Source of the DNA: an uncultured Planctomycetia bacterium
GTDB lineage: Bacteria > Omnitrophota > Gorgyraeia > 2-01-FULL-45-10
Direction: 5' to 3'
Length of the DNA stretch: 61,206 nt
Assembly (NCBI GenBank): GCA_964352425.1
Contig: CAYGRZ010000005.1
Location: forward strand, 1-61,206
The notes under the pieces are model-generated. The model searched no databases. It was not told the DNA's origin and was given only the letters and a program-made list of their open reading frames with translations. Position 1 is the stretch's first letter. Each line of letters begins with the position of its first letter. Shown here in pieces: positions 32,293-53,761 of the stretch. Both the position numbers and the translations under genes were made by a program.

Positions 32293-32331
32293 GTAGGTCA
32301 CCCTTAAGGGTGACCTACACTGTGGATAACT
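32293..32331 (+). repeat. REP hairpin (variant B) plus tail, abutting the yifB stop codon
   Basis: GTAGGTCACCCTTAAGGGTGACCTAC + ACTGTGGATAACT. The last nt is the first nt of the TCA (stop) of the minus-strand gene. Confidence 0.9.
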
Positions 32332-36367: not shown

Positions 36368-39300
36368 ATGGACACGGCATATAACAGGCTATTCGAATCC
36401 ACAAATGACGGCATATTCCGCTATACGTTTGACGAGGGCAGGGTCCTTATCGCCAACCAGGGCTTTGTCAACATGCTGGGCTTCGACTGCATAGCGTCAA
36501 ATGTGGAAGGAAAACTGCTGAGAGAGCTTATCGTATACACCGAAAAAGAAGGCCATATACGCGAGATGCTCGACAGGCAGGGCGAGCTCCACGGTTATGA
36601 ATACCACTTCAAGACGCTGAAGGGCGAAGACAAGTGGGTCATCGCCGACGCCTTCACGACCACCGACCCCGCCACCGGTAAGAGGATCGTCGAGATAATG
36701 ATCAAGGATATCACCAGCCGCAAGATGTCGGAGGATGCGCTCAAGGTCTCCGAGGCGAATTACCGCGCCATATTTGACACGGCGAATGACGCCATATTCA
36801 TCCACGATATCGAGAACGGCCAGATCGTAGACGTCAACCAGAAGACCTGCGAGATGTACCTGTATCCGAAAGAGGAGATACTCCGCCTGAGCGTTGCCGA
36901 CATAAGCCTCGGGGAGGCGCCCTACCGCCAGGAAGACATGATCGGGTATATAAACAAGGCGGCGTCCGGTGAGCCGCAGCTCTTCGAGTGGGTGGCGAAG
37001 GACCGCGCCGAGAGGCTCTTCTGGGTCGAGGTGAACCTGAAGCGCGCCGTGATCGGCGGGAAATACCGCATCGTCGCGATCGTGCGCGATATCACCGAGC
37101 GCAAGCAGCGGGAAGAGCGCTGGGCGAAGATAAACGAGGTCTTCCTGAGTTTCGGGGCCGATCCCCATGAGAACATCAACCGGCTGACGGCCCTGTGCGG
37201 CGAGCTGCTCGGAGCCGACTGCGCCCTGTATAACCGCATTGAGGAAGGCCAGTATCAGCTGCGCGCCTGCGGCCAGTGGAATGTGCCGCCGGACTTCGTC
37301 TCAATCGACAAACCCGACGGGCATATCTGTTACGATGTCATAAAGAAAGGGACCGACGAGGTTACGATCATCAGGAACCTGCAGGAGACCGAATACGCGA
37401 AGACCGACCCGAATGTCGTCAAATATAACCTGCAGACGTATATCGGGCGCGCGGTGAAATTCGGCGATGAGTACATCGGCACGCTCTGCGCCGTATACCA
37501 GCACGACTTCGGGCCGACCGAAGAGGACAGGGAGATCATGAGCTTCCTCGCGCTCGCGATCGGCGTCGAAGAGGAGCGTAAGAGCGCCGAAGAGATAAGC
37601 CAGATCGCGCAGTTCGCGATCGAGCGGTCCGCGGAACCGATCTTCTGGGTCGGCCCGGATGCCAGGATCATGCATGTCAACGAGATGGCCTGCATATCGC
37701 TCGGCTACACGCGTGAAGAGCTCCTCTCGATGAGCATCCCCGATATAGACGTGAATTTCACCCGGGAGGTCTGGCCGAACCACTGGAAGGAATTAAAGGA
37801 GCGCGGCTCGTTCACGTTTGAGACCAGGCACCGCCGGAAGGACGGGACCGCAATACCCGTCGAGATGACGGTCAACTACCTCGAGTTCCAGGGCAATGAG
37901 TACAATTTTTCCTACGCCCGCGACATCACGATGAGAAAGAAACAGGAGGAGGACCTTCTGCGGCGCGACTACCAGCTGGAGATCCTCTCGCGGACCAGCC
38001 AGCATATAAACGCAGTTCTCGAGGCGCCGGTCATCCTGCGCACGCTCATCACCGCGGCGATAGAACTCGTCGACGCGACGGCAGGGACGGCCGGGATGGC
38101 GGTCGGCGACAGGATGGTATTCAAGGAATACAACAAGAACGGAAAGGTGGAGTCGGTCGACTATGCCTTCAAGGCGGGCGAGGGCGTCTGCGGCTGCGTC
38201 ACCAGGACGCTGAAGACCTATATCTGCAACGACGCCGAACATGACCCGAACCTGTCGAAGGAGTTCCGCGAGGCCTTCGGCCTGTACAACCTGGTCAATA
38301 TCCCGATCCTGGACCGCGAGGGAAAGCTGCTCGGGTGCCTGGAGCTCCACAACAAGAGAGACCGCCGCCCGTTCGACGTGCAGGATGTCTTCATGCTGCA
38401 GGGGCTTGCCGCGAGCGCGGCCGTGGCACTCGAGAACGCGCATATCCTCGACCAGCGCGACAAGGCGGAGAAGGCGCTGGCGTGGCAGAAGGACTATTAC
38501 GAGACGCTGCTTGACGAGGCGAACATCTGGACGGACGTCATCGACAGGGATGGCAAAGTCCTGCTGTGGAACAAGAAGGCCGAAGAGATCACCGGGTACA
38601 AGCGGGAAGAGGTCATCGGGAGCATTAAGGTATGGGGCCTGATCTATCCGGACCCGAAGCAGAGGATCAGGATCCTCAATTTCATGAGGAAGCTGGTCGC
38701 GGCCGGCAAGACGATCAAGGACCTCGAGACCGAGATAACGACCGCCGGCGGCGACAAGCGGACGATCGCGTGGTCGTCCACGATAATACGGGACAGTTCC
38801 GGAAAGATAGTCGGCAGCATGTTCGTCGGCGACGATGTCACGGCCCGCAAAGTGGCGGAGAGGGAGCGTGAGCACCTGAACAACGAGCTCGTCAGGTTCA
38901 ACAAGAGGCTGAACCAGCTCGCGCTGAAAGATTCCCAGACGGGACTCTATAACTACCACTACCTTACCGAGATCATAGAGCCGGAGTACTACCGCGCCAA
39001 GCGCTACGTCCATCCGCTCTCGGTCATCATGATCGATATCGACTATTTCAAGTCTGTGAACGACCTGTACGGCCATGAGTTCGGCGATCTCGTGCTGAAG
39101 CAGCTGGCCGTGCAGCTGAAGAGGATGGTGCGCCGCTATGATATCGTCATCCGGTACGGCGGCGAGGAATTCGTCATCATATCGTCGGGCGCGGACCGCG
39201 CCAAGGCGCTCGTCTTAGGCCAGCGGCTGCTCGAGGCGCTCACGCTGTATAATTTCGGCGACAAGAAACATATTGTGAAGCTGAAGCTCTCCGTGGCAGT

Positions 39301-40087
39301 CGCGTCATACCCGGACGACGTGGTGTCGAAAGGCATGGACCTGATAAACCTGACCGACAAGATCCTGGCCAGGGTCAAGGAGGCGGGCGGCGCGAAAGTA
39401 TATTCGATGGTGGACATAAAGAAGGGCACAATACCGGTCGCCGAAAGCGTCGAGATCACCGACGTGAGGTTCCTCAAAGACCAGATAACGAGGCTGAACA
39501 AGCGCGGCAAGCAGAGCCTGATGGAAGCAATATTCGCCTTTGCGAAGACGATCGAGATGCGTGACCATTATACCGGCGAACATGCCGATTCCACCGTCCG
39601 GTATTCTACGCAGCTGGCGCGGGCGCTCGGCGTGGGCCAGGAAGATATCGACAATGTCAGGAAGGCGTCGATACTGCACGACCTCGGCAAGGTCGGCATC
39701 AGCGACAAGATACTGCTGAAGAAGGCGAAGCTGACGAAGGGCGAGTTCGAAGAGATAAAGAAACATCCGCAGATCGGAGCCGACATTATACGGCCGATCC
39801 AGTTCATGCAGGAGATAATACCGCTCATCCTCTACCACCATGAACGGTGGGACGGGAAAGGATATCCCGAGGGCCTGAAGGGCGAGGGCATACCGATCGG
39901 CGCGCGCATAATATCGATAGCGGATGTCTACCAGGCGCTGACGTCCGACCGGCCGTACCGGAAGGCGTTCACGAAGAAAGAAGCGATGAACATCCTCAGG
40001 GAGGGCGCCGGCTCGCAGTTCGACCCGGAGATAGTGAAAGTATTCCTCGGGATCCTGAAGAAAGAGAAGAACCACAACCATACGTAG
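36368..40087 (+). CDS. Multidomain c-di-GMP signalling protein: PAS/GAF sensor array plus GGDEF diguanylate cyclase plus HD-GYP phosphodiesterase
   Basis: 1239 aa. Several PAS motifs and two GAF-like blocks. GGDEF domain with RYGGEEF. HD-GYP domain with HYTGEHA...ILHDLGK...HHERWDGKGYPEGL. Confidence 0.85.
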   Translation: MDTAYNRLFESTNDGIFRYTFDEGRVLIANQGFVNMLGFDCIASNVEGKLLRELIVYTEKEGHIREMLDRQGELHGYEYHFKTLKGEDKWVIADAFTTTDPATGKRIVEIMIKDITSRKMSEDALKVSEANYRAIFDTANDAIFIHDIENGQIVDVNQKTCEMYLYPKEEILRLSVADISLGEAPYRQEDMIGYINKAASGEPQLFEWVAKDRAERLFWVEVNLKRAVIGGKYRIVAIVRDITERKQREERWAKINEVFLSFGADPHENINRLTALCGELLGADCALYNRIEEGQYQLRACGQWNVPPDFVSIDKPDGHICYDVIKKGTDEVTIIRNLQETEYAKTDPNVVKYNLQTYIGRAVKFGDEYIGTLCAVYQHDFGPTEEDREIMSFLALAIGVEEERKSAEEISQIAQFAIERSAEPIFWVGPDARIMHVNEMACISLGYTREELLSMSIPDIDVNFTREVWPNHWKELKERGSFTFETRHRRKDGTAIPVEMTVNYLEFQGNEYNFSYARDITMRKKQEEDLLRRDYQLEILSRTSQHINAVLEAPVILRTLITAAIELVDATAGTAGMAVGDRMVFKEYNKNGKVESVDYAFKAGEGVCGCVTRTLKTYICNDAEHDPNLSKEFREAFGLYNLVNIPILDREGKLLGCLELHNKRDRRPFDVQDVFMLQGLAASAAVALENAHILDQRDKAEKALAWQKDYYETLLDEANIWTDVIDRDGKVLLWNKKAEEITGYKREEVIGSIKVWGLIYPDPKQRIRILNFMRKLVAAGKTIKDLETEITTAGGDKRTIAWSSTIIRDSSGKIVGSMFVGDDVTARKVAEREREHLNNELVRFNKRLNQLALKDSQTGLYNYHYLTEIIEPEYYRAKRYVHPLSVIMIDIDYFKSVNDLYGHEFGDLVLKQLAVQLKRMVRRYDIVIRYGGEEFVIISSGADRAKALVLGQRLLEALTLYNFGDKKHIVKLKLSVAVASYPDDVVSKGMDLINLTDKILARVKEAGGAKVYSMVDIKKGTIPVAESVEITDVRFLKDQITRLNKRGKQSLMEAIFAFAKTIEMRDHYTGEHADSTVRYSTQLARALGVGQEDIDNVRKASILHDLGKVGISDKILLKKAKLTKGEFEEIKKHPQIGADIIRPIQFMQEIIPLILYHHERWDGKGYPEGLKGEGIPIGARIISIADVYQALTSDRPYRKAFTKKEAMNILREGAGSQFDPEIVKVFLGILKKEKNHNHT

Positions 40088-41597: not shown

Positions 41598-42818
41598 ATG
41601 AACTGGCAGCTCAAAGTAAGCCTGCGGTATCTCACCTCCCGACACAGGGAAAAGTTCATATCCGCGATAAGCCTCATCTCGATCTTCGGCGTCGCCATCG
41701 GCGTCGGTGCGCTCATCATCGTCATAGCGGTCATGAGCGGCTTCGACGAGGACCTCCAGTCGAAGATCATCGGCACGTACTCGCATATCGAGGTGATCTC
41801 CGACTACGGCGTCAAACCCTCCGACGCGTTCACCGCGAAGATCCTTCGGTGCGGCGGCGTGAAGGCGGCGGCGTACTTCCTGAACGGGCAGGCGCTCATC
41901 ACCTACGGCGACAAGGTAACCGGCGTTATCGTGAAAGGCGTGAAGATCTCCGACGAGGTGAAGGTCAATAAGCTCGGAGCGTACCTGAAGACAGGTTCTC
42001 TCAATGTGGCCGGCGGCGGGGCGGTCCTCGGCAGCGAGCTCGCCCATAAGCTCGGCGTAACGACAGGGGATACCATCTCCGTCCTGTCACCGGCATCCAT
42101 TACCGTGAAGAATATGATCCTGCCCGGCCGCCTGAAGGCCGAGGCGAAACCTTTCAGGGTGGCCGGCATATTCACCTCGGGTATGTATGAATATGACGCC
42201 AACCTCATTTATGTCGATCTCGCCGACGCACAGGCCCTGCTTGGCGCCGGCGATATCGCAAGCGGTGTTTCCGTCCGTGTCGGCGACACTCAAGAGGCGG
42301 ACGGCATCAAGAGGGCGCTGCAGGTCAGCCTCGGCCCCGAGTACGTCGTCCGGACATGGGTGGAGATGAACAGGAACCTGCTTTCGGCGCTTAAATTAGA
42401 AAAGACGGTCATGTTCATCATCCTGGCTCTTATAGTCATGGTCGCCTGTTTCAATATCGCCAGCACTCTCATCATGACGGTCCTCGAGAAGACGAAAGAC
42501 ATCGGCATCCTGAAGGCGATCGGGGCGACGAACGTCAACACGATGGCGATATTCGCGATGCAGGGCGGCTTCATCGGCATCATCGGCACATTTCTCGGAA
42601 CGGCGATGGGGCTCGGCGTCTGCTGGTGCCTCAAGACATATAAATTCATCACGCTCCCGCCGGAGATATACTATATCGATAAACTTCCCGTCAAGATCGA
42701 CATGGGAGACATCTATCTCATAATCGCCTCGAGCATATTGATAAGCTTTATCGCGACGATATATCCCGCGTACAAGGCGTCGCGGCTCGACCCGGTGGAG
42801 GCCCTGCGCTATGAGTGA
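41598..42818 (+). CDS. lolC: Lipoprotein-releasing system permease (LolC/LolE family)
   Basis: 406 aa. MacB-like periplasmic domain plus FtsX C-terminal TM bundle. N-terminus LRYLTSRHREKFIS is typical. Confidence 0.85.
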   Translation: MNWQLKVSLRYLTSRHREKFISAISLISIFGVAIGVGALIIVIAVMSGFDEDLQSKIIGTYSHIEVISDYGVKPSDAFTAKILRCGGVKAAAYFLNGQALITYGDKVTGVIVKGVKISDEVKVNKLGAYLKTGSLNVAGGGAVLGSELAHKLGVTTGDTISVLSPASITVKNMILPGRLKAEAKPFRVAGIFTSGMYEYDANLIYVDLADAQALLGAGDIASGVSVRVGDTQEADGIKRALQVSLGPEYVVRTWVEMNRNLLSALKLEKTVMFIILALIVMVACFNIASTLIMTVLEKTKDIGILKAIGATNVNTMAIFAMQGGFIGIIGTFLGTAMGLGVCWCLKTYKFITLPPEIYYIDKLPVKIDMGDIYLIIASSILISFIATIYPAYKASRLDPVEALRYE

Positions 42819-43497
42819 CGTGATATTGACGGCGCGGGATGTTTCGAAAGTGTACAGGAAAGGATCGAAGGAAGTCCGGGCCGTGAACGGCGTCAGCCTC
42901 GACGTGAAGAAAGGCGCCTCAGTCGCGGTGATCGGCCCCTCGGGCGCCGGCAAATCCACCCTCCTGCACCTTCTGGGCGGGCTCGACCGGCCGACCGCGG
43001 GCACGGTCCTGATGGACGGCGCCGACATGTACCGGCTCTCCGACAAGGCCCGGGCGCGGCTCAGGAACGGCCGCGTCGGTTTTGTGTTCCAGTTCTACCA
43101 TCTTCTGCCCGAATTTACGGCGCTCGAGAACGTGATGTTGCCGGGGATGATCGGAGGGCATGGCGCATGGGGCATGGCGCATGGGGTAAAAGAAAAAGCG
43201 AGAAATCTGTTGAAGTCTGTCGGGCTGGAAGATCGGGCAAGCCACAGGCCGGGTGAACTTTCCGGCGGAGAATCCCAGCGCGTCGCGATAGCGCGCGCCC
43301 TCATGAACGCCCCGCAGGTTCTCCTCTGCGACGAACCGACCGGTAATCTCGATTCAAAGACCAGCGAATCTATATTTGAACTCTTATTCGGCCTTAAGGC
43401 GAAGACAGGCATGTCTATAGTCATAGTAACTCATGATGAAAGCCTCTCCAAAAGGACTGACGAGGTCCTCCGCATCAAAGACGGCAGCGTAGTATAA
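42811..43497 (+). CDS. lolD: Lipoprotein-releasing system ATP-binding protein
   Basis: Walker A GPSGAGKST, signature LSGGESQR, Walker B LLCDEPTGNLD. Overlaps lolC by 8 nt. Confidence 0.85.
   Translation: MSDVILTARDVSKVYRKGSKEVRAVNGVSLDVKKGASVAVIGPSGAGKSTLLHLLGGLDRPTAGTVLMDGADMYRLSDKARARLRNGRVGFVFQFYHLLPEFTALENVMLPGMIGGHGAWGMAHGVKEKARNLLKSVGLEDRASHRPGELSGGESQRVAIARALMNAPQVLLCDEPTGNLDSKTSESIFELLFGLKAKTGMSIVIVTHDESLSKRTDEVLRIKDGSVV
43158..43185 (+). repeat. Perfect 14-bp tandem duplication inside lolD
   Basis: GCATGGCGCATGGG x2, encoding HGAWGMAHG in the variable loop after the Q-loop. Confidence 0.9.
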
Positions 43498-43520: not shown

Positions 43521-43597
43521 TTATGTTAGTATCGGTAGGGCACCTTTAAAGGTGCCCTACGCTGTGGATAACTCAGCCCCAGAGATTCCTGTCCAAG
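43521..43597 (+). repeat. REP hairpin (variant A) with both flanks duplicated from the 32223-32355 locus
   Basis: TTATGTTAGTATCG + GTAGGGCACCTTTAAAGGTGCCCTAC + GCTGTGGATAACT + CAGCCCCAGAGATTCCTGTCCAAG. The last 24 nt are identical to the reverse complement of the 3' end of yifB. Confidence 0.9.
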
Positions 43598-43670: not shown

Positions 43671-43699
43671 TTGACAGATATCGTTACATGATGTATACT
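43671..43699 (+). promoter_or_regulatory. Consensus sigma70 promoter of the giant gene
   Basis: TTGACA 43671-43676, 17-nt spacer, TATACT 43694-43699. Shares the TTGACAGATAT core with the 2447-2572 repeats. Confidence 0.6.
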
Positions 43700-43740: not shown

Positions 43741-43774
43741 AGACACTTTGCCGCGCGCAAGGTGTCTTTTGTTT
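43741..43774 (+). terminator. Terminator-like hairpin inside the 5' leader of the giant gene (possible attenuator)
   Basis: 11-bp stem AGACACTTTGC / GCAAGGTGTCT with a 5-nt loop, followed by TTTGTTT. Located between the predicted TSS (about 43706) and ATG 43817. Confidence 0.5.
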
Positions 43775-43816
43775 ATCATAATATTTCAAAAGTAAATATC
43801 AATTCCGGAGGAAACA

Positions 43817-46800
43817 ATGTTTAAGAAATTCGTGCGCATCATTGTTGCTATTACTTTCCTTCTCAATGAAACAGCTTTTGCATTGGGACCCGGTGTTGTC
43901 TCGGGCCAGTTACGTCCGAACGGCAGCGATACCAGGGACGATATGTACGCTGCCGGCCAAAAACTGTTCGCAGCCAGGCGCGGACCGGGATCGATCAACT
44001 GGGAATCGTATATCAACAGGGATGGTTTCCAGGGTGATATCCCTAATATTCCTGGTTTAAAGTTTGTGCAGTCAGGCGATATGAACGTCGCGCCTGCGGG
44101 CTGGGAGAATAACAAGCTGCTCAATGCGGGCGTCTCGGACCTGATCCAGGCGCTTACGTATTTTCGCGATTCTGAAGCAAAATTGCCGGCTTCATATGAT
44201 ATCAGGGAAGGTTATTATGAAGTCGACAAAGCGGGCGGCGGGCTTCCGATCAGCAGGTGGGAATATGACGCCCAGAAAGATAGCTGGACCCTCGTCGTGC
44301 ATTACGATTTCGTCCAGATGTGGAATAACATCCTTGCCAATGACGTGCGGTTCGAATATACGTTCCCTGACGGCGAGAAACGTACCGTCAGCCTCGCCTG
44401 GGCTGTATTTTACAGGATCGCGAAACACGAGATGGCCGACCTGCAGAAGAAGACGGGGACACCGAAAGGCGGCGGCCACATTACAGAAAATGAGGCGACC
44501 GACGGCGAGATCGGCGGCGAGCTTGCCGCCAACACGATCGGCGGACGCTATAACATCATCAATGACGCGGTATGGATGTGGTTCCTCGGCTCCTACGCGT
44601 TCGGCTCACCGACGCAGCGTAACAATGACATATTAAAGGAAAGGCTCACGTGGTTCTTTGCGGGTAAGGAAGCGCGGGACATGAAATTGAATCTCGAATT
44701 CCCGAACCTCCTCCGGGACGATGCCGCGCGCAAGGCCGCGATCGGCCTGGCGCTTGCCCTCAACCGCCAGTTTTATGCGCACTACAGGAAAACACCGGAT
44801 GAGGAGTATAAAAGCGCGCGGATGGAGCGCCTCAAGCATGATTACGAAATGCGGAAGTCCGCCGTCACCGAAGCGCTGTCCGCTACGGGGAAAGAGGAGA
44901 TCATTACGAAGCACCTCCCCGGCCGTGCCCTCACGATTAACGGCAAGAAGTATTACGGCAGCGCCGATCATTATTTTGATACGATCTATGGCACATTGCA
45001 GGAAGCTGTCATGTGGATGCTATCGAACAAAGATATCGCGTGCCTGAAACCGTCCGTTGACAAGGGCATGTTCGGTGACACAGTAACTGTGATGGTACGG
45101 AATCCTGATAATGAGAATGAAACACTGCGCCTGAAGGTTGAGATAAAGAGGCATTCTCCGGAAATAATCCATTCCTTTAGTATTATTAACGGCATGGAAA
45201 TCTCGACGGGCATCAATTCCAAAGGTAATGATGCGGCATTCATCGGGAAGATGCAGGAATTGCTCAGCGATATTAAGACAGGAAAGATGAGGGATGTCTG
45301 GCCGTTAAGCAGATGGGCCAGGGTAAAAGGGGGACAGCGCCCTATTTCCGAAGCGCCGGCCGCGTCCGGCGAGATGCGCGGGGACGGGACCGGCTTCGAT
45401 ACGTCGAAGGAGGAGCTGCGCAAGGACCTCGGATTCGACAAGCCGGCCGCGGGCGCGGAGGCTGCGGTAAGATCAGCTACGGTCCACGGCATTACTCCGG
45501 CGCAGGTTGTCACCGTTACGGGTGTCCCCGAAACCGGCGCGAAGCAGGCGCTGAGAAACGCCCTGCAACAGATCCGGAATAACAGCAGGCTTGACGCGGC
45601 GGAACGCGGACGACTCGTGTATGATGCAATTGAGAGGCGGTCCAATATACCGATAGAGGAGGCCGTGGCGATAAGGCGTGACTTGGGTATTACTATGGAA
45701 GACCTGACCATGGCGCTTTTTGCGCAGCAGCTGGAAGTCGGTTTTATCCGCGATACATTAGAGCGCGAAACGCCCAAGGAAATGAGGCTCGGGACATCGG
45801 AAAAAGACATCGCCCTGAAAGCGGTGCTGAACCGTGAACGTACAAGGAGGCTGGACAAAAAACAGGAGCCCTGGAAGAACGGCGTCTTGGCTGCAAAGAC
45901 CCCTGAAGAGATCGTGAAAATATTGCAAGACATGAGAGATGCTAAGGACTGGCTGCCGTCGCTGAGCCTGCAGCAGGCTGTCTGCAGGAGGGTGAAAGAG
46001 CTCCATCCTTCCGAGGACCTGGATCCGTATTTTGACAAGATCGCCGGTGAGCTTGTGGAGGGCTATGACGGACTGAGGGGGGTTTTTTACGATCTTGAAC
46101 ATCCGAAAGCGGTGCGCGGCCTGCATTTGCTGAATCAACGAGGCGATGTCTCCGGTGAATTCTGCACTCTCTGCTATCCCACCGTCGTCAAGGACCTGAA
46201 AACGGAGCGAGGGTTGCCGTGGGGGGATTACAATATATTCTTCACCTATTTCCCGTTCGCCAAGCACGGAATAACCATAGGATATAAGGACCATGTTTCT
46301 CAAAAGGCCGACCGGGCCAAGATCCTCGATATGCTCAGGCTCATTGAAGAGATGCCGTCATTCCGCATCGTCTTCAACGGTGTCGGCGCCGGCGCCGCCA
46401 TACCTAAACACACTCACTTCCAGGGATTTACGGAGACGATGCCCGTAGAAGAGTTATTGAACAGGCTGGATGGCGAGGAGAGGCTCAGGTGGGGCGACAC
46501 GGGGAAGGGTTCGTTCGTGACCTTGCTCCCCGGCTATCCTGCGTCGGCGGTCGTGGTCAAGAGCAAGGACAGGAAAACCCTGGCCGGGCAGGCCGCCAAC
46601 ATTGTAGAGATGATTAACGTCATCGGCAATATGGAATCAAAGAACTATTCGGCAAGCCTCATGTTCAGATATGTCCCCGGAGAAAAAGCCTATTACGCGT
46701 TCATCTTCCCGCGCAATGTCGCCGGTGAGACGCCGACGGGCTTCGACGGCATGTTCGGGATCAGCGAAATTAGCGGCAAGGTCATTTGCGAGCATGACAA

Positions 46801-48334
46801 GAATTTTAACAATGCATCCGCGCAGATAGTATGGGCTGCCCTGAAAGAGGCCGGCATACCGCAGGATCAGTTTATCCCGATGCTGGCAAGGGCCCGCGAA
46901 TACCTTGACTCGAAATATGGCAACGGCAGTGTCTCCATTGGGACAGGGAAGGCTGGATTCTCCTCGGCGGGCGACTCCGGCAGCCCCGTAAGCGCGGCGG
47001 GTAAGGGATCGGTTGTACTGAAATCGATGGATGCCGAGACGATGCGCGGCATGCTGTCATGCCTGATCGAAGCAGAGCAGGGCGGTACTCCAGACGTGTC
47101 CGGCGAGCAGCGCGGGGACGGGACCGGCTTCGATACGTCGAAGGAGGAGCTGCGCAAGGACCTCGGATTCGACAAGCAGGCGGAGGCGAGGATAGCCGCG
47201 GATAAGGAAGCGCAGCAGGCTGAAGACCTGGCAAATATCAACATCATAGCAGACTCGGATTCGCTCGGCTTCATCAACGCGGTCGAAGTGCTGCTCCGGA
47301 ACGGAAAGAGCAGTCTCGACCAGTACCAGGAGGATATGCTCAAGCGCGCTTTCGTCGTCCAGGATCTCGAAGCGCTGCGACCGGCCCTTCAAAGGATCAT
47401 TGTTGCGATCAAGGACCGCAAGAAAGTTCTGCAAGATGCAGCGAAAGACAAAGAAGCGCTCTATGAAGCGCCCGACGGGAAATTGCTGAAACAATCGTCG
47501 ATGATAACCGCAGGCGCCATTGCGCAGAGCGCCGCGCCGCGCGAAATGATCGAAGCCGGCCGTCAGCCGGCGGCGGATCTCGCGCCAAAGCGGATCGTGG
47601 TAGCGCCGAACATTGCCGATATCATATCCGACTACGCGGCGCGGATCGCCAGAGATAAAGGCCCCGGCGTCGTCGAGCCGGCGCCCCGCGAGATCGCGGC
47701 ATTCTATCCTTTATTCGGCCTGCTCGAAACGCAGCCGGTCGAGATCTGGCTGCCGCAGAGCGTCGAGAAACAGCTGACCGCCCCGGTGCGCGCCGAGATC
47801 GCGAAGCTCAATAAGCGTATCAGGGAGCGCAGCGGCTCCAAAGAAGACGCCATCACCATCAAACCGTATGATGGAGCAAATCTCTCGAAGAAACTCGCCC
47901 AGAAGAGTGACAAGGTGCGGCGGATATTCATCAATGACCTGTCGATGACACAGTATTTCAGGGACGTCCTGCGGTCGGCTGACGGTGTTGAGCTCTTCAA
48001 AGGTAACCGCATATTCACGACCACTATCCCTCAGGGCAGGGACGAGCTCGAGAACTCTGTCTTCCAGGCATGGTTGGTCAAGGTCTCGATACTGTCATGT
48101 CTTCTTACGGAGAGTAACGCGCCGGTCGTGGGAGCGGCCTTACGATCAGAACTTGAGGGAAGATTTGAAGGCGATCCGGCAGAATTCATCGATAATCTGG
48201 CCAAGGACGAGACGAGCGCGACCCCTGAGGCGGTCGCCAGGCGCGTCAACTACTTCCTCGGCAAGATCGTGAAACTCAGCAAGGTCATTGCCGAACAGCT
48301 CAGGATGCTCAAGGCGTTCTGGACTGCGGCGTAA
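43817..48334 (+). CDS. Giant hypothetical exported protein (1505 aa) with a central GalT-branch HIT-like (HxHxQ; GDP-hexose/Ap4A phosphorylase-like, DUF4922-like) domain
   Basis: GGAGGA RBS. N-terminal signal-like segment FVRIIVAITFLLNETAFA-LG. Residues about 760-1000 (nt about 46090-46810) contain FFTYFPFAKHGITIGYKDHVSQ and FNGVGAGAAIPKHTHFQGF. The remaining 1250 aa or so are unrecognised. Confidence 0.7.
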   Translation: MFKKFVRIIVAITFLLNETAFALGPGVVSGQLRPNGSDTRDDMYAAGQKLFAARRGPGSINWESYINRDGFQGDIPNIPGLKFVQSGDMNVAPAGWENNKLLNAGVSDLIQALTYFRDSEAKLPASYDIREGYYEVDKAGGGLPISRWEYDAQKDSWTLVVHYDFVQMWNNILANDVRFEYTFPDGEKRTVSLAWAVFYRIAKHEMADLQKKTGTPKGGGHITENEATDGEIGGELAANTIGGRYNIINDAVWMWFLGSYAFGSPTQRNNDILKERLTWFFAGKEARDMKLNLEFPNLLRDDAARKAAIGLALALNRQFYAHYRKTPDEEYKSARMERLKHDYEMRKSAVTEALSATGKEEIITKHLPGRALTINGKKYYGSADHYFDTIYGTLQEAVMWMLSNKDIACLKPSVDKGMFGDTVTVMVRNPDNENETLRLKVEIKRHSPEIIHSFSIINGMEISTGINSKGNDAAFIGKMQELLSDIKTGKMRDVWPLSRWARVKGGQRPISEAPAASGEMRGDGTGFDTSKEELRKDLGFDKPAAGAEAAVRSATVHGITPAQVVTVTGVPETGAKQALRNALQQIRNNSRLDAAERGRLVYDAIERRSNIPIEEAVAIRRDLGITMEDLTMALFAQQLEVGFIRDTLERETPKEMRLGTSEKDIALKAVLNRERTRRLDKKQEPWKNGVLAAKTPEEIVKILQDMRDAKDWLPSLSLQQAVCRRVKELHPSEDLDPYFDKIAGELVEGYDGLRGVFYDLEHPKAVRGLHLLNQRGDVSGEFCTLCYPTVVKDLKTERGLPWGDYNIFFTYFPFAKHGITIGYKDHVSQKADRAKILDMLRLIEEMPSFRIVFNGVGAGAAIPKHTHFQGFTETMPVEELLNRLDGEERLRWGDTGKGSFVTLLPGYPASAVVVKSKDRKTLAGQAANIVEMINVIGNMESKNYSASLMFRYVPGEKAYYAFIFPRNVAGETPTGFDGMFGISEISGKVICEHDKNFNNASAQIVWAALKEAGIPQDQFIPMLARAREYLDSKYGNGSVSIGTGKAGFSSAGDSGSPVSAAGKGSVVLKSMDAETMRGMLSCLIEAEQGGTPDVSGEQRGDGTGFDTSKEELRKDLGFDKQAEARIAADKEAQQAEDLANINIIADSDSLGFINAVEVLLRNGKSSLDQYQEDMLKRAFVVQDLEALRPALQRIIVAIKDRKKVLQDAAKDKEALYEAPDGKLLKQSSMITAGAIAQSAAPREMIEAGRQPAADLAPKRIVVAPNIADIISDYAARIARDKGPGVVEPAPREIAAFYPLFGLLETQPVEIWLPQSVEKQLTAPVRAEIAKLNKRIRERSGSKEDAITIKPYDGANLSKKLAQKSDKVRRIFINDLSMTQYFRDVLRSADGVELFKGNRIFTTTIPQGRDELENSVFQAWLVKVSILSCLLTESNAPVVGAALRSELEGRFEGDPAEFIDNLAKDETSATPEAVARRVNYFLGKIVKLSKVIAEQLRMLKAFWTAA
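45364..45443 (+). repeat. Intragenic 80-nt repeat, copy 1
   Basis: Encodes SGEMRGDGTGFDTSKEELRKDLGFDK. A 68-nt run (45376-45443) is identical to 47110-47177. Confidence 0.95.
47098..47177 (+). repeat. Intragenic 80-nt repeat, copy 2
   Basis: Encodes SGEQRGDGTGFDTSKEELRKDLGFDK. Two mismatches to copy 1. Confidence 0.95.
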
Positions 48335-48362
48335 TGTGTAGCATATAGTAAATTCTAAACAA

Positions 48363-48394
48363 GGCGTAGCGGAGGTTTAAACCTCCGCTACGCC
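48363..48394 (+). repeat. REP-like hairpin (variant C)
   Basis: GGCGTAGCGGAGGTTTAAACCTCCGCTACGCC. Same GTAG-N6-TTTAAA-N6-CTAC architecture with fully compensated arms, and a partly conserved tail TACTGTG. Confidence 0.75.
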
Positions 48395-48450
48395 TACTGT
48401 GTCAGGATCATAGGGTGTAGGTTATCGCAGGGCGCAAGTTCGGTACCATA

Positions 48451-48478
48451 GCCCCGGAGAGATCCGGGGCCGTTTTTT
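48451..48478 (+). terminator. Rho-independent terminator of the giant gene
   Basis: CCCCGG-agagat-CCGGGG followed by CCGTTTTTTT. Confidence 0.7.
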
Positions 48479-48516
48479 TGCCTGCGGAGCTACCGGGGAA
48501 AAGCCATTCATATTAA

Positions 48517-48545
48517 TTGACATACTATTACCATTTATATATAAT
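48517..48545 (+). promoter_or_regulatory. Consensus sigma70 promoter of ilvE-mcsA-mcsB
   Basis: TTGACA 48517-48522, 17-nt spacer, TATAAT 48540-48545. Confidence 0.6.
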
Positions 48546-48572
48546 TGAATCGAAATATCATGGGCAAATACT

Positions 48573-49439
48573 ATGAAAATCTACCTTAACGGCAAGCTGG
48601 TCGACAAAGAAGATGCCGTGATATCGGTCTTCGACCATGGCCTCCTGTACGGAGACGGCGTGTTCGAAGGCATACGTACCTACGATGGCCTCGTCTTCAG
48701 GCTGAAAGAGCACATCGACAGGCTGTACAAGTCCGCGGACGCGATAGGGCTTACGATACCGCTGAACAAGACCGAGATGATGGAAGCGGTGATAACGACG
48801 CTGAAGGCGAACAGGCTCAATGACGCCTATATCAGGCTTGTCGTGACGCGGGGGCCCGGAGACCTCGGGCTCGATCCCCGCAAGTGCAAAAAACCGACGA
48901 TATTTATCATCACGGACAAGATCGTCCTCTATCCGAAGGAGTTTTACCGGAAGGGCCTCGATATAGTGACCGCGACGACGAAGCGGAACCTGCCGCAGGC
49001 GCTCGATCCGAGGATAAAATCGCTCAACTACCTCAACAATATCCTCGCGAAGATAGACGCGATAAAGGCCGGCACCGTGGAGGCGATCATGCTCACGCAT
49101 GACGATTATGTGGCAGAGTGCACGGGCGACAACATATTTATCGTCGCGGGCGGCGAGCTCATAACCCCGCCGGCCGATGTCGGCGCGCTCGAAGGCATAA
49201 CCCGCGACGCGGTGATAGGCATCGCGCGCCGCACGGACGTGCCGGTCTTCGAAAAGATGCTCAGGATGGAGGATGTCTACGGCGCCCGCGAGGTATTCCT
49301 GACGGGCACCGCCGCAGAGATCATACCGGTCGTGAAGATAGACGAGCGCGTGATAGCTGACGGCAAGCCCGGGAAGGTGACGCTGAAGCTGTGGGACGAG
49401 TTCAAAAAGCTGACGAAGACAGACGGAGTGAGGTACTGA
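48573..49439 (+). CDS. ilvE: Branched-chain amino acid aminotransferase (class IV PLP fold)
   Basis: VFDHGLLYGDGVFEGIRTY..., catalytic Lys context IKSLNYLNNILAK, GITRD. Confidence 0.85.
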   Translation: MKIYLNGKLVDKEDAVISVFDHGLLYGDGVFEGIRTYDGLVFRLKEHIDRLYKSADAIGLTIPLNKTEMMEAVITTLKANRLNDAYIRLVVTRGPGDLGLDPRKCKKPTIFIITDKIVLYPKEFYRKGLDIVTATTKRNLPQALDPRIKSLNYLNNILAKIDAIKAGTVEAIMLTHDDYVAECTGDNIFIVAGGELITPPADVGALEGITRDAVIGIARRTDVPVFEKMLRMEDVYGAREVFLTGTAAEIIPVVKIDERVIADGKPGKVTLKLWDEFKKLTKTDGVRY

Positions 49440-49440
49440 T

Positions 49441-49944
49441 ATGCTCTGCGACGCCTGCGGTAAAAAAGAAGCGACGGTCCACCTTACCGAGATCATCAAC
49501 GACAAGATAACGAAGCTCCATATCTGCGAGGAGTGCGCGAAGGCCAAGGGCGCCGAGATGGAGGAGCATTTTGGCTTAAGCGACCTTCTGGCGGGCTTAA
49601 GCGACCTCGGCTCAGGCGTCGAGACCGAGCTGGTCGGGACGACAAAATGTCCTACCTGCGCTTTCACCTACAACGATTTCAAGAAGATGGGACGGCTCGG
49701 CTGCAGCGACTGCTACGAGGCCTTTAAGAAGCAGCTCGGGCCGCTGCTGAAGAGGATACACGGCGTCGGCCACCATGTCGGCAAGGTCCCGCTCACGGTC
49801 GGCAAGACCGTCAAGGAGACGAGGACGATCCAGGACCTCAAGATGCAGCTGGAGAAGGCGATACAGGCTGAGGAGTTTGAAGAAGCGGCAAGGCTCAGGG
49901 ATAAGGTCAGGGAGCTTGAGAGTAAACATAAGAGCGGGGGCTAA
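49441..49944 (+). CDS. mcsA: Protein-arginine kinase activator McsA (zinc-finger repeats plus UVR motif)
   Basis: CDACGKKEATVHLTEI...LHICEECA, a second CxxC pair, and C-terminal EEFEEAARLRDKVRELE UVR motif. Confidence 0.8.
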   Translation: MLCDACGKKEATVHLTEIINDKITKLHICEECAKAKGAEMEEHFGLSDLLAGLSDLGSGVETELVGTTKCPTCAFTYNDFKKMGRLGCSDCYEAFKKQLGPLLKRIHGVGHHVGKVPLTVGKTVKETRTIQDLKMQLEKAIQAEEFEEAARLRDKVRELESKHKSGG

Positions 49945-49950
49945 AGGCGA

Positions 49951-50997
49951 ATGACGCTGAATGACATGTTGAAACAGTCGAGCGAGTGGCTGAAAGGCAC
50001 GGGTCCCAGCGCCGATATCGTGATGTCGTCGCGCACGCGGCTGGCCAGGAATATCGACAAGGTGCCGTTCTCGAACTGGGCGAACAAGCAGCAGCTCGAG
50101 GACATCCTCGTCCGGGTCGCGGAGGCGGCGCTGGCCGTAAATTTCCTGAAGGACTCCCTCTTCTTCAGGCTGAAGGATTTAAGCGAGGTCGACAGGCTCT
50201 TTCTCGTCGAGCGCCATCTGATGAGCCCCGAGCATGCCAGGGACGTTGAGTTCAAGGGCCTGATCATCGATCCGAAAGAGATCGTCAGCATCATGATAAA
50301 CGAGGAGGACCACCTCAGGATACAGGTGCTGCAGTCGGGCATGAACCTGAGGGAGTGCTGGCGGATAATCGACGAGATAGATACCGCGCTTTCAAAGAAG
50401 CTGCCGTACGCCTATTCGGCCAAGTGGGGATACCTGACCGCCTGCCCGACGAACGCGGGCACGGGACTGCGGGGTTCGGTCATGATACATATGCCCGCGC
50501 TGGTCTTTGCCGGCCAGATAGGGAAAATACTTCAGGCCATCGCGAAGCTGGGCTTGAACATCAGGGGGCTCTACGGCGAGGGAACCGAAGCGACCGGCAA
50601 CATATTTCAGATATCGAACCAGGCATCGATGGGCATGACCGAAGAAGAGATGGTCGATAATATCGAGAGGATCGTGAACCAGGCGATCTCGCGCGAGGAA
50701 GCGACGAGAAAGAATATCATCCTGAAGAACAAGGAAGCGCTGGTCGACAGGGTCTCGCGCGCCTACGGGACGCTGAAGAGCGCGCATATCATATCGAGCA
50801 CCGAGACGATAACACTGATCTCCGCGATACGGCTGGGCGTCGACCTGGGGATCGTCAAGAACCTGGACAGGACGATGGTCAACGAGCTCTTCATATTGAC
50901 GCAGCCGGCGCATCTGCAGAAGCTTGAAGGCAAGATGCTGAGTTCCGGCGAGCGGGATGTGAAGAGGGCGGATCTGATTCGAGAGAAACTGAAGTAG
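49951..50997 (+). CDS. mcsB: Protein arginine kinase McsB (ATP:guanido phosphotransferase)
   Basis: SSRTRLARN, INEEDHLRIQ, CPTNAGTGLR and GEG...G.IFQISN motifs of the phosphagen-kinase fold. Confidence 0.85.
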   Translation: MTLNDMLKQSSEWLKGTGPSADIVMSSRTRLARNIDKVPFSNWANKQQLEDILVRVAEAALAVNFLKDSLFFRLKDLSEVDRLFLVERHLMSPEHARDVEFKGLIIDPKEIVSIMINEEDHLRIQVLQSGMNLRECWRIIDEIDTALSKKLPYAYSAKWGYLTACPTNAGTGLRGSVMIHMPALVFAGQIGKILQAIAKLGLNIRGLYGEGTEATGNIFQISNQASMGMTEEEMVDNIERIVNQAISREEATRKNIILKNKEALVDRVSRAYGTLKSAHIISSTETITLISAIRLGVDLGIVKNLDRTMVNELFILTQPAHLQKLEGKMLSSGERDVKRADLIREKLK

Positions 50998-51119
50998 GGT
51001 CATAGGGTTTAGGGTCATAGTAGTACAGGGTAATAGGGCAAAGATACAAGGACCCCATGACCCCATGACCCCATGACCCCATGACCCCATGACCCCATGA
51101 CCCTAAGACCCTATTACCC
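50996..51119. repeat. Octanucleotide repeat block in the mcsB-clpC spacer
   Basis: 51051-51098 is GACCCCAT x6 (perfect), followed by two degenerate units. 50996-51040 carries inverse-orientation degenerate units (AGGGTCAT, AGGGTAAT). GGGTAATAGGG (51028-51038) pairs with CCCTATTACCC (51109-51119). Confidence 0.9.
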
Positions 51120-51146
51120 AGTCTTACAGACGGAGGACTGAACGCA

Positions 51147-53579
51147 ATGCCTATGTTCAACCGTTTTACCGAGCGCGCAAGAAAAGTGATACTGCTCGCA
51201 AAGGAAGAGGCGAAGAGGTTTAATCACGACTACATCGGGACCGAGCATATCCTGCTCGGGCTCGTCAGGGAAGGCGAGGGCGTGGCGGCGGCAGTCCTGG
51301 CGAGTTTTGCCTTGAGCCCCGAAAAGATACGGCTCGAAGTGGAAAAGCTGGTCCAGCCGGGGCCGAGCACCGTCGTGTCGGGCGACCTGCCGTTCACGCC
51401 GAAGGCGAAGAAGGTCATCGAGCTCTCGATAGACGAGGCGCGCGCGCTCGGGCACAACTATATCGGTACCGAGCACCTGCTGCTCGGCCTGATCAGGGAA
51501 GGCGAGGGTGTCGCGTCGCAGGTGCTGATGAACCTCGGCCTGGAACTTGAGAAGGTCAGGGAAGAGGTGATGAACCTGCTCGGCTCCGAAGTGCCGGGAT
51601 ACGAGATGGGCCAGAAGGTCTCGCAGGCGAAGACGCCGGCGCTCGACGCGTTCGGGAGGGACCTGACGAAACTGGCGAAAGACGGCAAGCTCGACCCCGT
51701 GATCGGCAGGAAGAACGAGATCGAGCGCGTGATACAGATACTGTCGAGGAGGACGAAAAATAACCCGGTGCTGCTGGGCGAGGCGGGCGTCGGCAAGACA
51801 GCGATCGTCGAGGGGCTTGCCGAGATGATCGTGGCCGGAGAGATGCCCGAGAGCCTGAAGGACAAGCGCCTGATCATACTCGACCTCGCGCTGATGGTCG
51901 CCGGCACCAAGTACCGGGGGCAGTTCGAGGAGAGGATCAAGGCCGTGATGGACGAGATCAAGCGGTCCGAGGACATCATCATATTCATCGACGAGCTGCA
52001 TACCCTGATCGGCGCCGGCGGCGCCGAGGGCGCGATAGACGCCTCCAACATACTGAAACCGGCGCTGTCGCGCGGCGAGATACAGTGCATCGGCGCGACG
52101 ACGCTTGACGAATACAGGAAGCATATCGAGAAGGACGCGGCGCTCGAGCGGCGGTTCCAGACGATCATGGTCGAGCCGCCCAGCGTCGACGAAACGATAG
52201 AGATATTGAAGGGCTTACGTGACAAGTATGAGGCGCACCACCGCATCAAGTTCACCGACGGGGCGCTTGAAGCGGCGGCGAAGCTTTCCGACCGGTATAT
52301 CAGCGGCCGTTACCTGCCGGACAAGGCGATCGACCTCATCGATGAAGCGGGCGCCCGCGCGCGCCTCTCGGTGATGACCGCGCCGCCCGACGTGAAGCAT
52401 GTCGAGGACCGGATGGCGGTCGTGCGGCAGGAGAAAGAATCCGCCGTCAAAAACCAGGATTTTGAAAAAGCGGCAAAGTTCAGGGATGAGGAACGGAAAT
52501 TAAAAGACGACCTGAACAAGACCAAGCGCGAGTGGAAAGAATCGAAAGGAAAGTTCGAGCCGAAAGTGACCGACGACGATATCGCGACGATAGTCTCCAA
52601 ATGGACCGGCATCCCGATCGTGAAGCTCGAGGAGAAAGAGCAGGACAAGTTCCTGAAGATGGAGGAGTCGATGCACAAGCGCGTGATCGGCCAGGACGAG
52701 AGCATATCGGCGATCGCGCACGCGGTCAGGCGCTCGCGCGCCGGCATCAAGGACCCGCGCAGGCCGATCGGGTCGTTCATATTCCTCGGGCCCACCGGCG
52801 TCGGCAAGACGCTGGTCGGCAAGGCGCTCGCGGAATTCATGTTCGGCGATGAGGACGCGATCATCCAGATAGACATGTCCGAATACATGGAGAAGTTCAA
52901 TGTCTCCAGGCTCGTCGGGGCGCCTCCGGGGTACGTCGGCTACGAAGAGGGCGGGCAGCTGACCGAGAAGGTGCGGCGGAAGCCCTATTCGGTCGTGCTG
53001 CTCGACGAGATCGAGAAGGCCCATACCGACGTGTTCAATTTGCTGCTGCAGATGCTCGAGGAAGGCCGCCTGACCGATTCGTTCGGCAGGAAGGTTGATT
53101 TCAAAAATACGATCATCATCATGACCTCGAACATCGGCGCGGAGATGCTGAAGAAACAGGGCTCGATCGGCTTCAAGGCCCAGACAGAGGACGCGTCATA
53201 TCAATCGATGAAAGACCGGCTTCTCGACGAGGTCAAGAAGGCGTTCAAGCCTGAGTTCCTGAACAGGGTCGACGACATCATTGTCTTCAGGTCCCTGACG
53301 AAAGAAGATCTCGGGCGCATAGTCTCGCTCGAGATCAGGGACGTCGAGTCGCGCCTGGAAGAGCAGGATATAAAGATCGAGCTGAGCCAGGAAGCGAAAG
53401 ACTTCCTGATAGAGAAGGGGTTTGACAAGACCTTCGGCGCCAGGCCCCTGAAGAGGACGATCCAGCGTTTTCTGGAAGACCCGCTCGCGGAAGAGATCAT
53501 CAAAGGCTCTTTCAAGAAGGGCGGGAAGGTGATGGTGACCGCTAAAGTTGACCATTTAGAATTCGCGGTTACTAAATGA
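51147..53579 (+). CDS. clpC: ATP-dependent Clp protease ATP-binding subunit ClpC
   Basis: 810 aa. Double Clp_N repeat, two AAA+ modules (GEAGVGKT, GPTGVGKT) and a middle-domain UVR motif FEKAAKFRDEE. Confidence 0.93.
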   Translation: MPMFNRFTERARKVILLAKEEAKRFNHDYIGTEHILLGLVREGEGVAAAVLASFALSPEKIRLEVEKLVQPGPSTVVSGDLPFTPKAKKVIELSIDEARALGHNYIGTEHLLLGLIREGEGVASQVLMNLGLELEKVREEVMNLLGSEVPGYEMGQKVSQAKTPALDAFGRDLTKLAKDGKLDPVIGRKNEIERVIQILSRRTKNNPVLLGEAGVGKTAIVEGLAEMIVAGEMPESLKDKRLIILDLALMVAGTKYRGQFEERIKAVMDEIKRSEDIIIFIDELHTLIGAGGAEGAIDASNILKPALSRGEIQCIGATTLDEYRKHIEKDAALERRFQTIMVEPPSVDETIEILKGLRDKYEAHHRIKFTDGALEAAAKLSDRYISGRYLPDKAIDLIDEAGARARLSVMTAPPDVKHVEDRMAVVRQEKESAVKNQDFEKAAKFRDEERKLKDDLNKTKREWKESKGKFEPKVTDDDIATIVSKWTGIPIVKLEEKEQDKFLKMEESMHKRVIGQDESISAIAHAVRRSRAGIKDPRRPIGSFIFLGPTGVGKTLVGKALAEFMFGDEDAIIQIDMSEYMEKFNVSRLVGAPPGYVGYEEGGQLTEKVRRKPYSVVLLDEIEKAHTDVFNLLLQMLEEGRLTDSFGRKVDFKNTIIIMTSNIGAEMLKKQGSIGFKAQTEDASYQSMKDRLLDEVKKAFKPEFLNRVDDIIVFRSLTKEDLGRIVSLEIRDVESRLEEQDIKIELSQEAKDFLIEKGFDKTFGARPLKRTIQRFLEDPLAEEIIKGSFKKGGKVMVTAKVDHLEFAVTK

Positions 53580-53747: not shown

Positions 53748-53761
53748 AAATTTTTAAAAAT

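Follow-up and report, generated by a model that had tools for sequence, protein, structure and literature searches.

A strain-variable Omnitrophota protein with a DUF4922 domain between conserved ends belongs to an apparently undescribed modular family of probable exported carriers

The phosphorylases of the DUF4922/GalT branch of the HIT superfamily, which include the GDP-L-galactose phosphorylase VTC2, the GDP-D-glucose phosphorylase GDPGP1 and the yeast Ap4A phosphorylase Apa2 (Protein Data Bank, PDB, entry 4I5T), are, as far as they have been characterised, soluble cytosolic proteins of 300–450 amino acids (aa). In this study, we describe a domain of this type that sits in the middle of a 1505-aa protein with a signal peptide. 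The gene occupies positions 43817–48334 on the forward strand of a 61,206-nucleotide (nt) stretch of DNA, hereafter the window (positions 1 to 61,206 of contig CAYGRZ010000005.1, assembly GCA_964352425.1), which derives from a member of the Omnitrophota, a group of abundant, uncultured and apparently host-dependent nanobacteria. The likeness to the described phosphorylases consists of a Pfam match, an end-to-end alignment with Apa2, a CxxC motif, the residues H826/Q829, N854 and G859, and the HxHxQ motif. Apart from its unusual setting, the domain differs from them at three near-invariant positions, where an Asn (N810T), a His (H818G) and a Ser (S861A) have been replaced.

Long proteins with sugar enzymes and a predicted location outside the cytoplasm have been reported from the same phylum. 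West-Roberts et al. (2023, bioRxiv 10.1101/2023.11.21.568195) place TPI, GPI, FBPase, PGM and aldolase domains in the predicted extracellular parts of giant Omnitrophota proteins and doubt that topology, and Nielsen & Lui (2026, bioRxiv 10.64898/2026.06.07.730766), who studied proteins of at least 10 kAA (10,000 aa), distinguish a class called "multi-enzyme metabolic cluster", with a signal peptide or transmembrane (TM) helices in 94%. The giants ("Archaeovorins" and the "multi-enzyme metabolic cluster") share with our protein the phylum, a signal peptide and a position in variable genome regions, and they likewise carry starch synthase, PGM, PGI, aldolase, hexokinase and HIT domains on a long polypeptide predicted to lie outside the cytoplasm. 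The proteins covered there are at least 10,000 aa long, cross the membrane with tens to hundreds of TM helices and contain HEAT repeats as well as C39/S8 peptidase and SecA-like domains, whereas the carrier family that we describe below ranges from 0.64 to more than 3.7 kAA and combines one or few cargo domains with two conserved terminal modules. At 1505 aa, the protein of the window has its signal peptide as its sole hydrophobic segment and yields no Pfam match to the domains of the giants. Literature searches and term look-ups in these two preprints returned no description of a family with such N- and C-modules, and this Omnitrophota family is apparently undescribed. An earlier prediction made from the sequence of the window (the original prediction) had called the architecture an unfamiliar one; long Omnitrophota proteins with sugar enzymes and predicted export appear in the two preprints, so the architecture is not wholly unprecedented. 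We therefore regard our finding as a sharply defined mid-size variant of the recently recognised exported multi-enzyme proteins, a small relative of the Omnitrophota giants, and not as a categorically new system.

Two further groups of secreted proteins are comparable in their overall plan. MARTX toxins combine conserved arms with strain-variable effectors that are freed by an internal protease, and they end in a C-terminal signal for the type I secretion system (T1SS). The conserved ends, the interchangeable enzymatic middle and the strain-to-strain variation of the carrier family resemble this plan by analogy only. In contrast to MARTX toxins, our protein has no glycine-rich RTX repeats and no match to a cysteine protease domain, DUF4922 being its sole Pfam match; its terminal modules are globular and non-repetitive, and it starts with an N-terminal Sec signal. 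Moreover, the cargoes of the family are metabolic enzymes and not cytotoxic effectors, and there is no sequence or fold similarity. The family also resembles autotransporters and the cargo proteins of the type IX secretion system (T9SS), which carry a C-terminal domain (CTD), in that a variable passenger follows an N-terminal Sec signal and a conserved domain with a terminal motif lies at the extreme C-terminus. However, the C-module of the family is predicted to be alpha/beta and flavodoxin-like, to end in helices and to form no beta-barrel or beta-sandwich, and the family has a conserved N-module in addition. Our protein has no Pfam match to an autotransporter or T9SS CTD domain.

The evidence for the family comes from homologs of the whole protein. 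The first round of searches recovered 29 homologs with lengths of 840–2633 aa, and every one with a named source was from an Omnitrophota metagenome-assembled genome (MAG). All 29 match aa 1–350 of our protein and, in nearly all cases, aa 1240–1505, and nothing else; the matches always fall at the extreme termini of the homologs, and the Pfam content between the termini differs from one homolog to the next. A further 54 loci came from scans of GTDB genomes and JGI metagenomes and brought the number of distinct N-modules to 71. Counted in this manner, the family has at least 71 distinct relatives, nearly all of them from Omnitrophota MAGs, which agrees with a restriction to this lineage and makes an Omnitrophota origin of the window the most likely one. 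Complete open reading frames (ORFs) encode 640–3385 aa, and incomplete ORFs reach beyond 3700 aa. The N-module comes first and the C-module last in all of the complete ORFs apart from two upstream members of tandem pairs (L043a and L045a), and the region between them varies from approximately 0 to more than 3000 aa. The minimal members (640–725 aa) consist of the N- and C-modules with almost nothing between them, for example P0036 with 666 aa and L005 with 640 aa. Because the terminal modules are common to at least 71 relatives with unrelated middles, some of which have no cargo, the HIT domain is accessory to the framework. Judged by sequence, the family is defined by its conserved N- and C-modules, and the HIT domain is one interchangeable cargo among many. 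The original prediction had considered the protein an orphan, which is incorrect, and had implied that the HIT core defines it, which the unrelated middles do not support. It had also stated that some 1250 residues outside the core match nothing; this fails for aa 1–350 and 1240–1505, approximately 40% of the protein, which have many homologs.

The middles themselves are dominated by one theme. Pfam matches above the gathering thresholds in mid-protein positions include central-carbon enzymes, namely PFK, a cupin-type PGI, a complete hexokinase, a three-domain transketolase and a class II aldolase. Further sugar-related cargoes are 6-phosphogluconolactonase/GlcN6P isomerase, GHMP kinase, aldose 1-epimerase, starch synthase and a GT9 glycosyltransferase, and an NAD-dependent NDP-sugar epimerase/dehydratase represents nucleotide-sugar metabolism. 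Other enzymes are AlaDH/PNT, 2-hydroxyacid dehydrogenase, OYE and PCMT, and the non-enzyme cargoes comprise CsrA, the CTD of the RNA polymerase (RNAP) alpha subunit, a receiver domain, and TPR, HEAT and NHL repeats. In four of the long members, Pfam matched nothing at all. The main cargo theme is thus the metabolism of sugars, sugar phosphates and nucleotide sugars, and the DUF4922 domain of the window fits this theme. The regulatory cargoes, namely CsrA, the RNAP alpha CTD and the receiver (among them aa 581–616 of P0019), are hard to square with a purely periplasmic or extracellular role. The PFK cargo of P0003 (aa 555–844) contains the motifs SGGESAGVN, IGGNDH, PKTIDRD, MGR and PE; most of its catalytic motifs appear to be intact, and two residues, the Lys that precedes TID and the Asp at the second Gly position of GGDG, presumably resemble those of PPi-dependent PFKs.

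The cargo of our protein is a DUF4922/Apa2-like GalT-branch HIT domain of approximately aa 700–1025 (45914–46891, forward strand). Pfam DUF4922 (PF16269) matches aa 783–870 with an E value of 5e-10 and 39.9 bits, compared with a gathering cut-off of 23.6 bits, and is the only Pfam match of the entire protein. A word-indexed search for homologs of only the central region returned no matches, and an exhaustive HMMER search was needed; with aa 560–1089 as the query, it found 232 relatives at E ≤ 1e-3, which delimit a homologous core of approximately 260 aa (aa ~764–1025) inside the domain of approximately 330 aa. The stand-alone relatives (300–420 aa) are all DUF4922 proteins with weak similarity to GalT type 2. 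A profile of the core and 40 relatives matches Apa2 end to end (E 6.5e-6; profile positions 21–314 against residues 8–324 of the 4I5T chain) and brings the N-x-F-P...H and G-x-S...H-x-H-x-Q motifs into register with those of Apa2. The second profile match, 4I5V, is the 4I5T chain with Ala at the second His of HxHxQ. On the basis of these matches, we consider the assignment of the core to the GalT-branch HIT family, as originally predicted with reference to GDP-hexose and Ap4A phosphorylases, to be sound.

The two diagnostic segments of the domain are FFTYFPFAKHGITIGYKDHVSQ at aa 808–829 and FNGVGAGAAIPKHTHFQGF at aa 853–871. The second includes the catalytic motif H865-T-H867-F-Q869 (46409–46423, forward strand), in which both His residues are conserved in 149 of 149 relatives and the Gln in 138 of 149; the motif had been predicted at H866/H868/Q870, and its presence is upheld with a numbering that was one too high. 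The CxxC motif (C783-T-L-C786; 46163–46174, forward strand) has its first Cys in 102/102 and its second in 102/106 relatives. The other conserved residues that our protein retains are H826, Q829, N854, G859, P863, R966, E984 and G987. Its closest cargo relative, P0038, is a different protein of 2400 aa, which is 39% identical over aa 612–1025 and also contains UDP-glucose pyrophosphorylase and phosphoglucomutase domains. The fusion to these domains in P0038 points to hexose-1-phosphate or nucleoside diphosphate (NDP)-hexose chemistry.

The N-terminus carries a family-specific signal peptide for Sec and signal peptidase I (SPase I), MFKKFVRIIVAITFLLNETAFA, at aa 1–22 (43817–43882, forward strand), followed by LGPG. 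It has three basic residues in the n-region (MFKKFVR), an h-region of 9 residues and the putative cleavage site A-F-A|L (...NETAFA|LGPG). Among 63 distinct N-termini of the family, position −3 is A, S, C or T in 62 and position −1 is G or A in 62, followed by L-x-P; the median charge of the n-region is +3, and the median uncharged run is 12 residues. The pattern [ASC]-[FY]-[AG]|L-x-P is found in our protein and in 62/63 distinct members, and hydrophobic segments other than the signal peptide are absent from most members, including ours. The Sec signal that had been predicted from AFA-LG is thus borne out and extends to the homologs, and we regard this N-terminus as having the features of a textbook cleavable Sec signal that is unusually well conserved.

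The conserved N-module follows at aa 23–350 (43883–44866, forward strand). It is approximately 330 aa long, is 34–58% identical to the N-termini of all family members (hidden Markov model, HMM, E 7.6e-146), and contains the invariant cluster K-H-E-M-x-[D/E/H]...H...E, which in our protein comprises AKHEMAD at aa 202–208, H221 and E235. In the 71 N-modules, D176, S192 and K203 occur in all 71, R189 and H204 in 70, E205 and E235 in 69 and H221 in 68, and position 208 is D, E or H in 70. Our protein retains all of the invariant residues of the module (among them W169, D176, R189, S192, K203, H204, E205, D208, H221 and E235). The AlphaFold2 (AF2) model of the module is confident (pLDDT 81, pTM 0.74), and Foldseek found no match to it in PDB with E < 0.79 and none in BFVD with E < 0.1, where weak IrrE-N, SprT and peptidase rows stayed below the threshold. 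A profile of the module has no match among the PDB sequences, and no Pfam family covers it. The invariant cluster may be an HExx[D/E/H]-type site for catalysis or metal binding, for which the sub-threshold rows of the IrrE-N and SprT kind are the sole outside support. We regard the N-module as a conserved and probably catalytic domain, and it has no detectable relative in PDB or Pfam. In P0006 and P0007, the N-modules have a canonical HExxH (HEMMH) where the others have HEMxD or HEMxE, which is the basis of the zincin-like idea discussed below.

The C-module occupies aa ~1240–1505 (47534–48331, forward strand) and ends in LKAFWTAA at the carboxyl terminus, FWTAA being the conserved ending of the module in the family. 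Its approximately 260 aa are 23–52% identical to the extreme C-termini of the family members (HMM E 5.1e-90). In P0036, a minimal member that was modelled with AF2 (pLDDT 75), the module follows a disordered linker and is predicted to adopt a beta-alpha-beta three-layer fold with a helical tail. Foldseek returned only weak and generic flavodoxin-like or CheY-like matches (best 6puq, E 0.013), and the profile of the module gave no meaningful match among the PDB sequences.

The gene is strain-variable and accessory, because the 5.0-kb segment 43474–48516 that carries it has no counterpart in two related contigs, L060 and L061, which we found through a protein at least 90% identical to the McsB of the window. 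In both contigs, the lolD-like gene is followed by 74 bp and then by ilvE-mcsA-mcsB-clpC. The identity of L060 to the window is 93–96% from 48517 onward and 81% up to 43473. The left flank with lolC/lolD (42364–43473) is thus less similar to L060 than the right one (48517–56007), and the GC content at third codon positions (GC3) of lolD is also low, at 0.712; the lolCD flank was probably replaced together with the island by the recombination event that brought the gene. The GC contents of the three thirds of the gene are 0.524, 0.562 and 0.587, compared with 0.57–0.59 in the neighbouring genes. The original prediction had noted the low GC content of the 5′ third, and the value of 0.524 agrees with it; the GC3 of the gene, 0.687 compared with 0.79–0.83 in the neighbours, is a clearer signal. 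The contigs that lack the segment, together with this atypical GC3, support the acquired island that had been proposed.

The gene is thus strain-variable and encodes a member of an Omnitrophota-restricted modular family; we consider it fairly probable that this protein is an exported carrier and that its cargo is a phosphorylase of nucleotide sugars or dinucleotides. According to this explanation, the Sec system would export the protein and the signal peptide would be cleaved; the terminal modules would supply a common function, for example in anchoring the protein, in its processing or in its recognition by an additional transport step; and the cargo would act outside the cytoplasm of the producer. 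The cargo would use covalent His-nucleoside monophosphate (NMP) chemistry, with H867 as the nucleophile, phosphate as the acceptor and no ATP, and would either split an NDP-hexose into NDP and hexose-1-phosphate or cleave a dinucleoside polyphosphate. Because a phosphorylase needs only phosphate, it is plausible on chemical grounds that the DUF4922 cargo works outside the cytoplasm. Taken together, the members of the family resemble a toolkit with which sugars, sugar phosphates and nucleotide sugars would be processed either within a partner or prey cell or at the contact with it, and this reading fits the host-dependent lifestyle proposed for the Omnitrophota.

Several points weigh against the exported carrier. 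Export with cleavage of the signal peptide is an interpretation of sequence, no secretion machinery is conserved beside the family genes, and the model of P0036 has no confident contact between the N- and C-modules (pTM 0.52). The HIT domain of this particular copy may be slow, re-specialised or inactive, as discussed below. Many of the family cargoes are classic cytoplasmic proteins, and CsrA, the RNAP alpha CTD and receivers act on cytoplasmic partners. Hexokinase, PFK, GHMP kinases, transketolase and dehydrogenases usually need ATP, NAD or thiamine pyrophosphate (TPP), and such cargoes would be useless in the periplasm or outside the cell unless they are delivered into another cell. The cytoplasmic cofactors and partners of the sister cargoes therefore suggest either delivery into another cell or no export at all. 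The former is a subset of the exported-carrier explanation, in which the family would be a MARTX-like effector-delivery platform of an episymbiotic or predatory nanobacterium. The N-module would then be a zincin-like, metal-dependent processing enzyme (HExx[D/E/H]...H...E) that acts after Sec export, docking or translocation at contact with the host cell would be the task of the C-module, and the cassettes, which are cytoplasmic enzymes and regulators, would enter the host cytoplasm and re-route carbon and nucleotide-sugar pools to metabolites that the parasite takes up; cargo might be excised at repeated linker motifs, for example the 22-aa repeat described below, and swapped by recombination there. 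We regard delivery of this kind as decidedly unlikely. No export at all would make the protein a cytoplasmic or membrane-tethered scaffold, the N-terminal stretch being either no export signal or a tether to the inner face of the membrane. The modules would co-localise the cell's own sugar enzymes, and our protein would supply the GalT-like or NDP-hexose phosphorylase step. The cytoplasmic character of the cargoes named above is what such a scaffold would have, and in the six gene contexts examined we found no conserved neighbourhood, no secretion system and no fixed partner, the gene of the window lying between housekeeping operons. Genome surveys report hexokinase and PGI as frequently "missing" in the Omnitrophota, and the fused copies could be the real ones; the doubts of West-Roberts et al. 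about an extracellular placement of glycolytic domains point in the same direction. However, an h-region of ~9–12 residues is too short for a TM helix, and the positive n-region and the small residues at −3/−1 in 62/63 members are those of a cleaved signal. The signal peptide is more conserved than most of the protein, and the basic N-terminus, with a positive-inside orientation, would leave the bulk of the protein outside. Furthermore, near-identical strains differ in whether they have the gene, and such dispensability would not be expected of a core metabolic step. We consider a scaffold unlikely.

The exported carrier might also hold a cargo that binds and does not catalyse. In our protein, N810 (N in 136 of 139 relatives) is replaced by T, H818 (H in 134/141) by G and S861 (S in 141/149) by A, replacements that occur only or almost only here. 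With P811 also replaced by Y, the substrate-loop motif N-P-F-P-x-x-x-x-H is not present, and the Ser of G-A-S-x-P-x-H-x-H is absent. The Asn of N-x-F-P and the Ser of G-x-S align with conserved residues of Apa2, and full activity of this copy is thus not assured. The DUF4922 domain could therefore be a pseudoenzyme, a nucleotide or sugar-nucleotide binder that serves as a receptor, a lectin-like sensor or a decoy on an exported or surface protein, and the TPR, HEAT and NHL repeats elsewhere in the family show that cargoes need not be enzymes. Against this, the residues of the chemistry itself (H865/H867/Q869) are intact, as are CxxC, H826, Q829, N854, R966, E984 and G987; the adjacent H817 may replace H818, and P0038 also has G at position 818, yet keeps the N and the S. 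We consider a pure binder quite unlikely. It is hardly credible that the protein is a one-off secreted effector defined by its HIT core, with the remainder unique to it. The three features in favour of this view, namely the island, the signal peptide and the HIT core, are real, but the terminal modules that make up ~40% of the protein recur in relatives with unrelated middles, and members without any cargo exist, so the pattern of homologs refutes it.

The two preprints discussed above leave a puzzle, namely why the Omnitrophota have long exported proteins full of "cytoplasmic" sugar enzymes, and the present family is a small and tractable version of it. The members are 0.64 to ~3.7 kAA long, in most of them the topology is not complicated by predicted TM helices, the conserved signal peptide and terminal domains can be expressed, and natural "empty" and single-cargo members exist, which makes the export of the enzymes, the role of the framing domains and the activity of the cargoes testable. 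If the cargoes work outside the producer or inside a host cell, bacteria would have a new way of interacting through metabolism; should the cargoes remain within the producer, the family is a new kind of enzyme scaffold.

The cargo block of our protein has the appearance of a cassette. Two direct repeats of 97 nt, which are 92% identical and share an identical core of 69 nt, bracket a 1.7-kb block around the cargo; copy 1 (45356–45452, forward strand) encodes the 22-aa segment RGDGTGFDTSKEELRKDLGFDK at aa 521–542, and copy 2 (47090–47186, forward strand) corresponds to aa 1099–1120. A related peptide motif follows the hexokinase cargo of P0024. We rejected the 22-aa repeat as a family-wide feature, the exact repeat being specific to our protein and the motif of P0024 the one related case. 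Tandem pairs of family genes occur in L010 (9971–15375), L043 (5166–11362) and L045 (1862–12501). The upstream gene of the L045 pair has a C-module, and its N-module is reduced to the initial ~63 residues, which comprise the signal peptide and the helix MYAxGQKLFAA..GPG, and that of the L043 pair has a C-module and no N-module. Several of the family genes whose contexts were examined (among these contexts L055, L056 and L059) are a few hundred bases or less away from the end of their contig, a hint that assemblies break at multi-copy sequences. The presence of the same cargo in another framework (P0038), the tandem genes and the frequent position at contig ends suggest that cargoes are exchanged by recombination in the linkers. 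It is speculation that the repeats also serve as processing sites.

The gene itself is intact, with an ATG start, and is the longest ORF in the window, as had been stated; the second longest encodes 1239 aa. Its putative promoter, a sigma-70-like TTGACA-17-TATACT at 43671–43699 (forward strand), agrees with the consensus at 11 of 12 positions and is a consensus match only. The predicted structured leader stands in so far as a hairpin with an 11-bp stem and a following T-run occurs at 43741–43767 (forward strand), possibly an attenuator; the folding of the whole leader does not differ significantly from that of shuffled sequence (z-score −1.5), and no Rfam family, riboswitch or other structured leader, was found in it. 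A Shine-Dalgarno sequence, GGAGGA, can be read at 43807–43812 (forward strand), 4 nt before the ATG at 43817. The strong terminator that had been foreseen is also present, an 8-bp stem with 7 G-C pairs at 48451–48470 followed by T7 (48451–48480 in total, forward strand). The housekeeping genes on both sides are likewise confirmed, with lysS, a lolC/E-like and a lolD-like gene upstream, and an ilvE-like gene, mcsA, mcsB and clpC downstream. A scan of the whole protein against NCBIfam gave no match, and a search against the PDB sequences gave only a chance row for PpsR. The PADLOC scan for anti-phage defence found 0 families at E ≤ 0.1, and the window contains no second copy of the carrier family. 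In three of the six contexts, the family gene lies directly 5′ of branched-chain amino-acid genes on the same strand, which is possibly shared synteny: ilvE in the window (48573–49439), ilvD-ilvB-ilvN-ilvC-leuA in L055 and leuC-leuD-leuB in L056.

The island contains REP-like palindromes on both sides of the gene, as originally predicted for positions 43535 and 48363. The left one, GTAGGGCACC-TTTAAA-GGTGCCCTAC, has a perfect 10-bp stem at 43535–43560, and the right one, AGGCGTAGCGGAGG-TTTAAA-CCTCCGCTACGCCT, is a perfect palindrome at 48362–48395 with the same TTTAAA centre. An Rfam row for HrrF over the right palindrome was rejected as a chance match (24.6 bits compared with a gathering score of 77). 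The 26-mer of the left palindrome has exact copies at 32237 and, extended, at 31350–31389. A minus-strand ORF at 31399–31890 encodes a 164-aa IS200-like Y1 transposase (Pfam Y1_Tnp, E 2.5e-15), and the palindromes around it (31350–31389, 31911–31936, 32237–32262 and 32293–32318) form a classic REP/RAYT arrangement. Because the copy at 43535 matches the elements that flank this RAYT-like transposase ORF, we regard the palindromes as true REP-like repeats. A faint Y1_Tnp gene also adjoins the family member P0028.

Two other ORFs of the window deserve mention. The 1239-aa ORF at 36368–40087 encodes a multi-PAS/GAF-GGDEF-HD(-GYP-like) protein of cyclic di-GMP (c-di-GMP) signalling; c-di-GMP components (PilZ, GGDEF) have been noted near Omnitrophota giant genes (West-Roberts et al., 2023, bioRxiv 10.1101/2023.11.21.568195). 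Finally, a 484-aa ORF at 53762–55216, located 3′ of clpC, has no Pfam match at 1e-5, and its ortholog in L060 (6140–7594) bears a faint TamB annotation.

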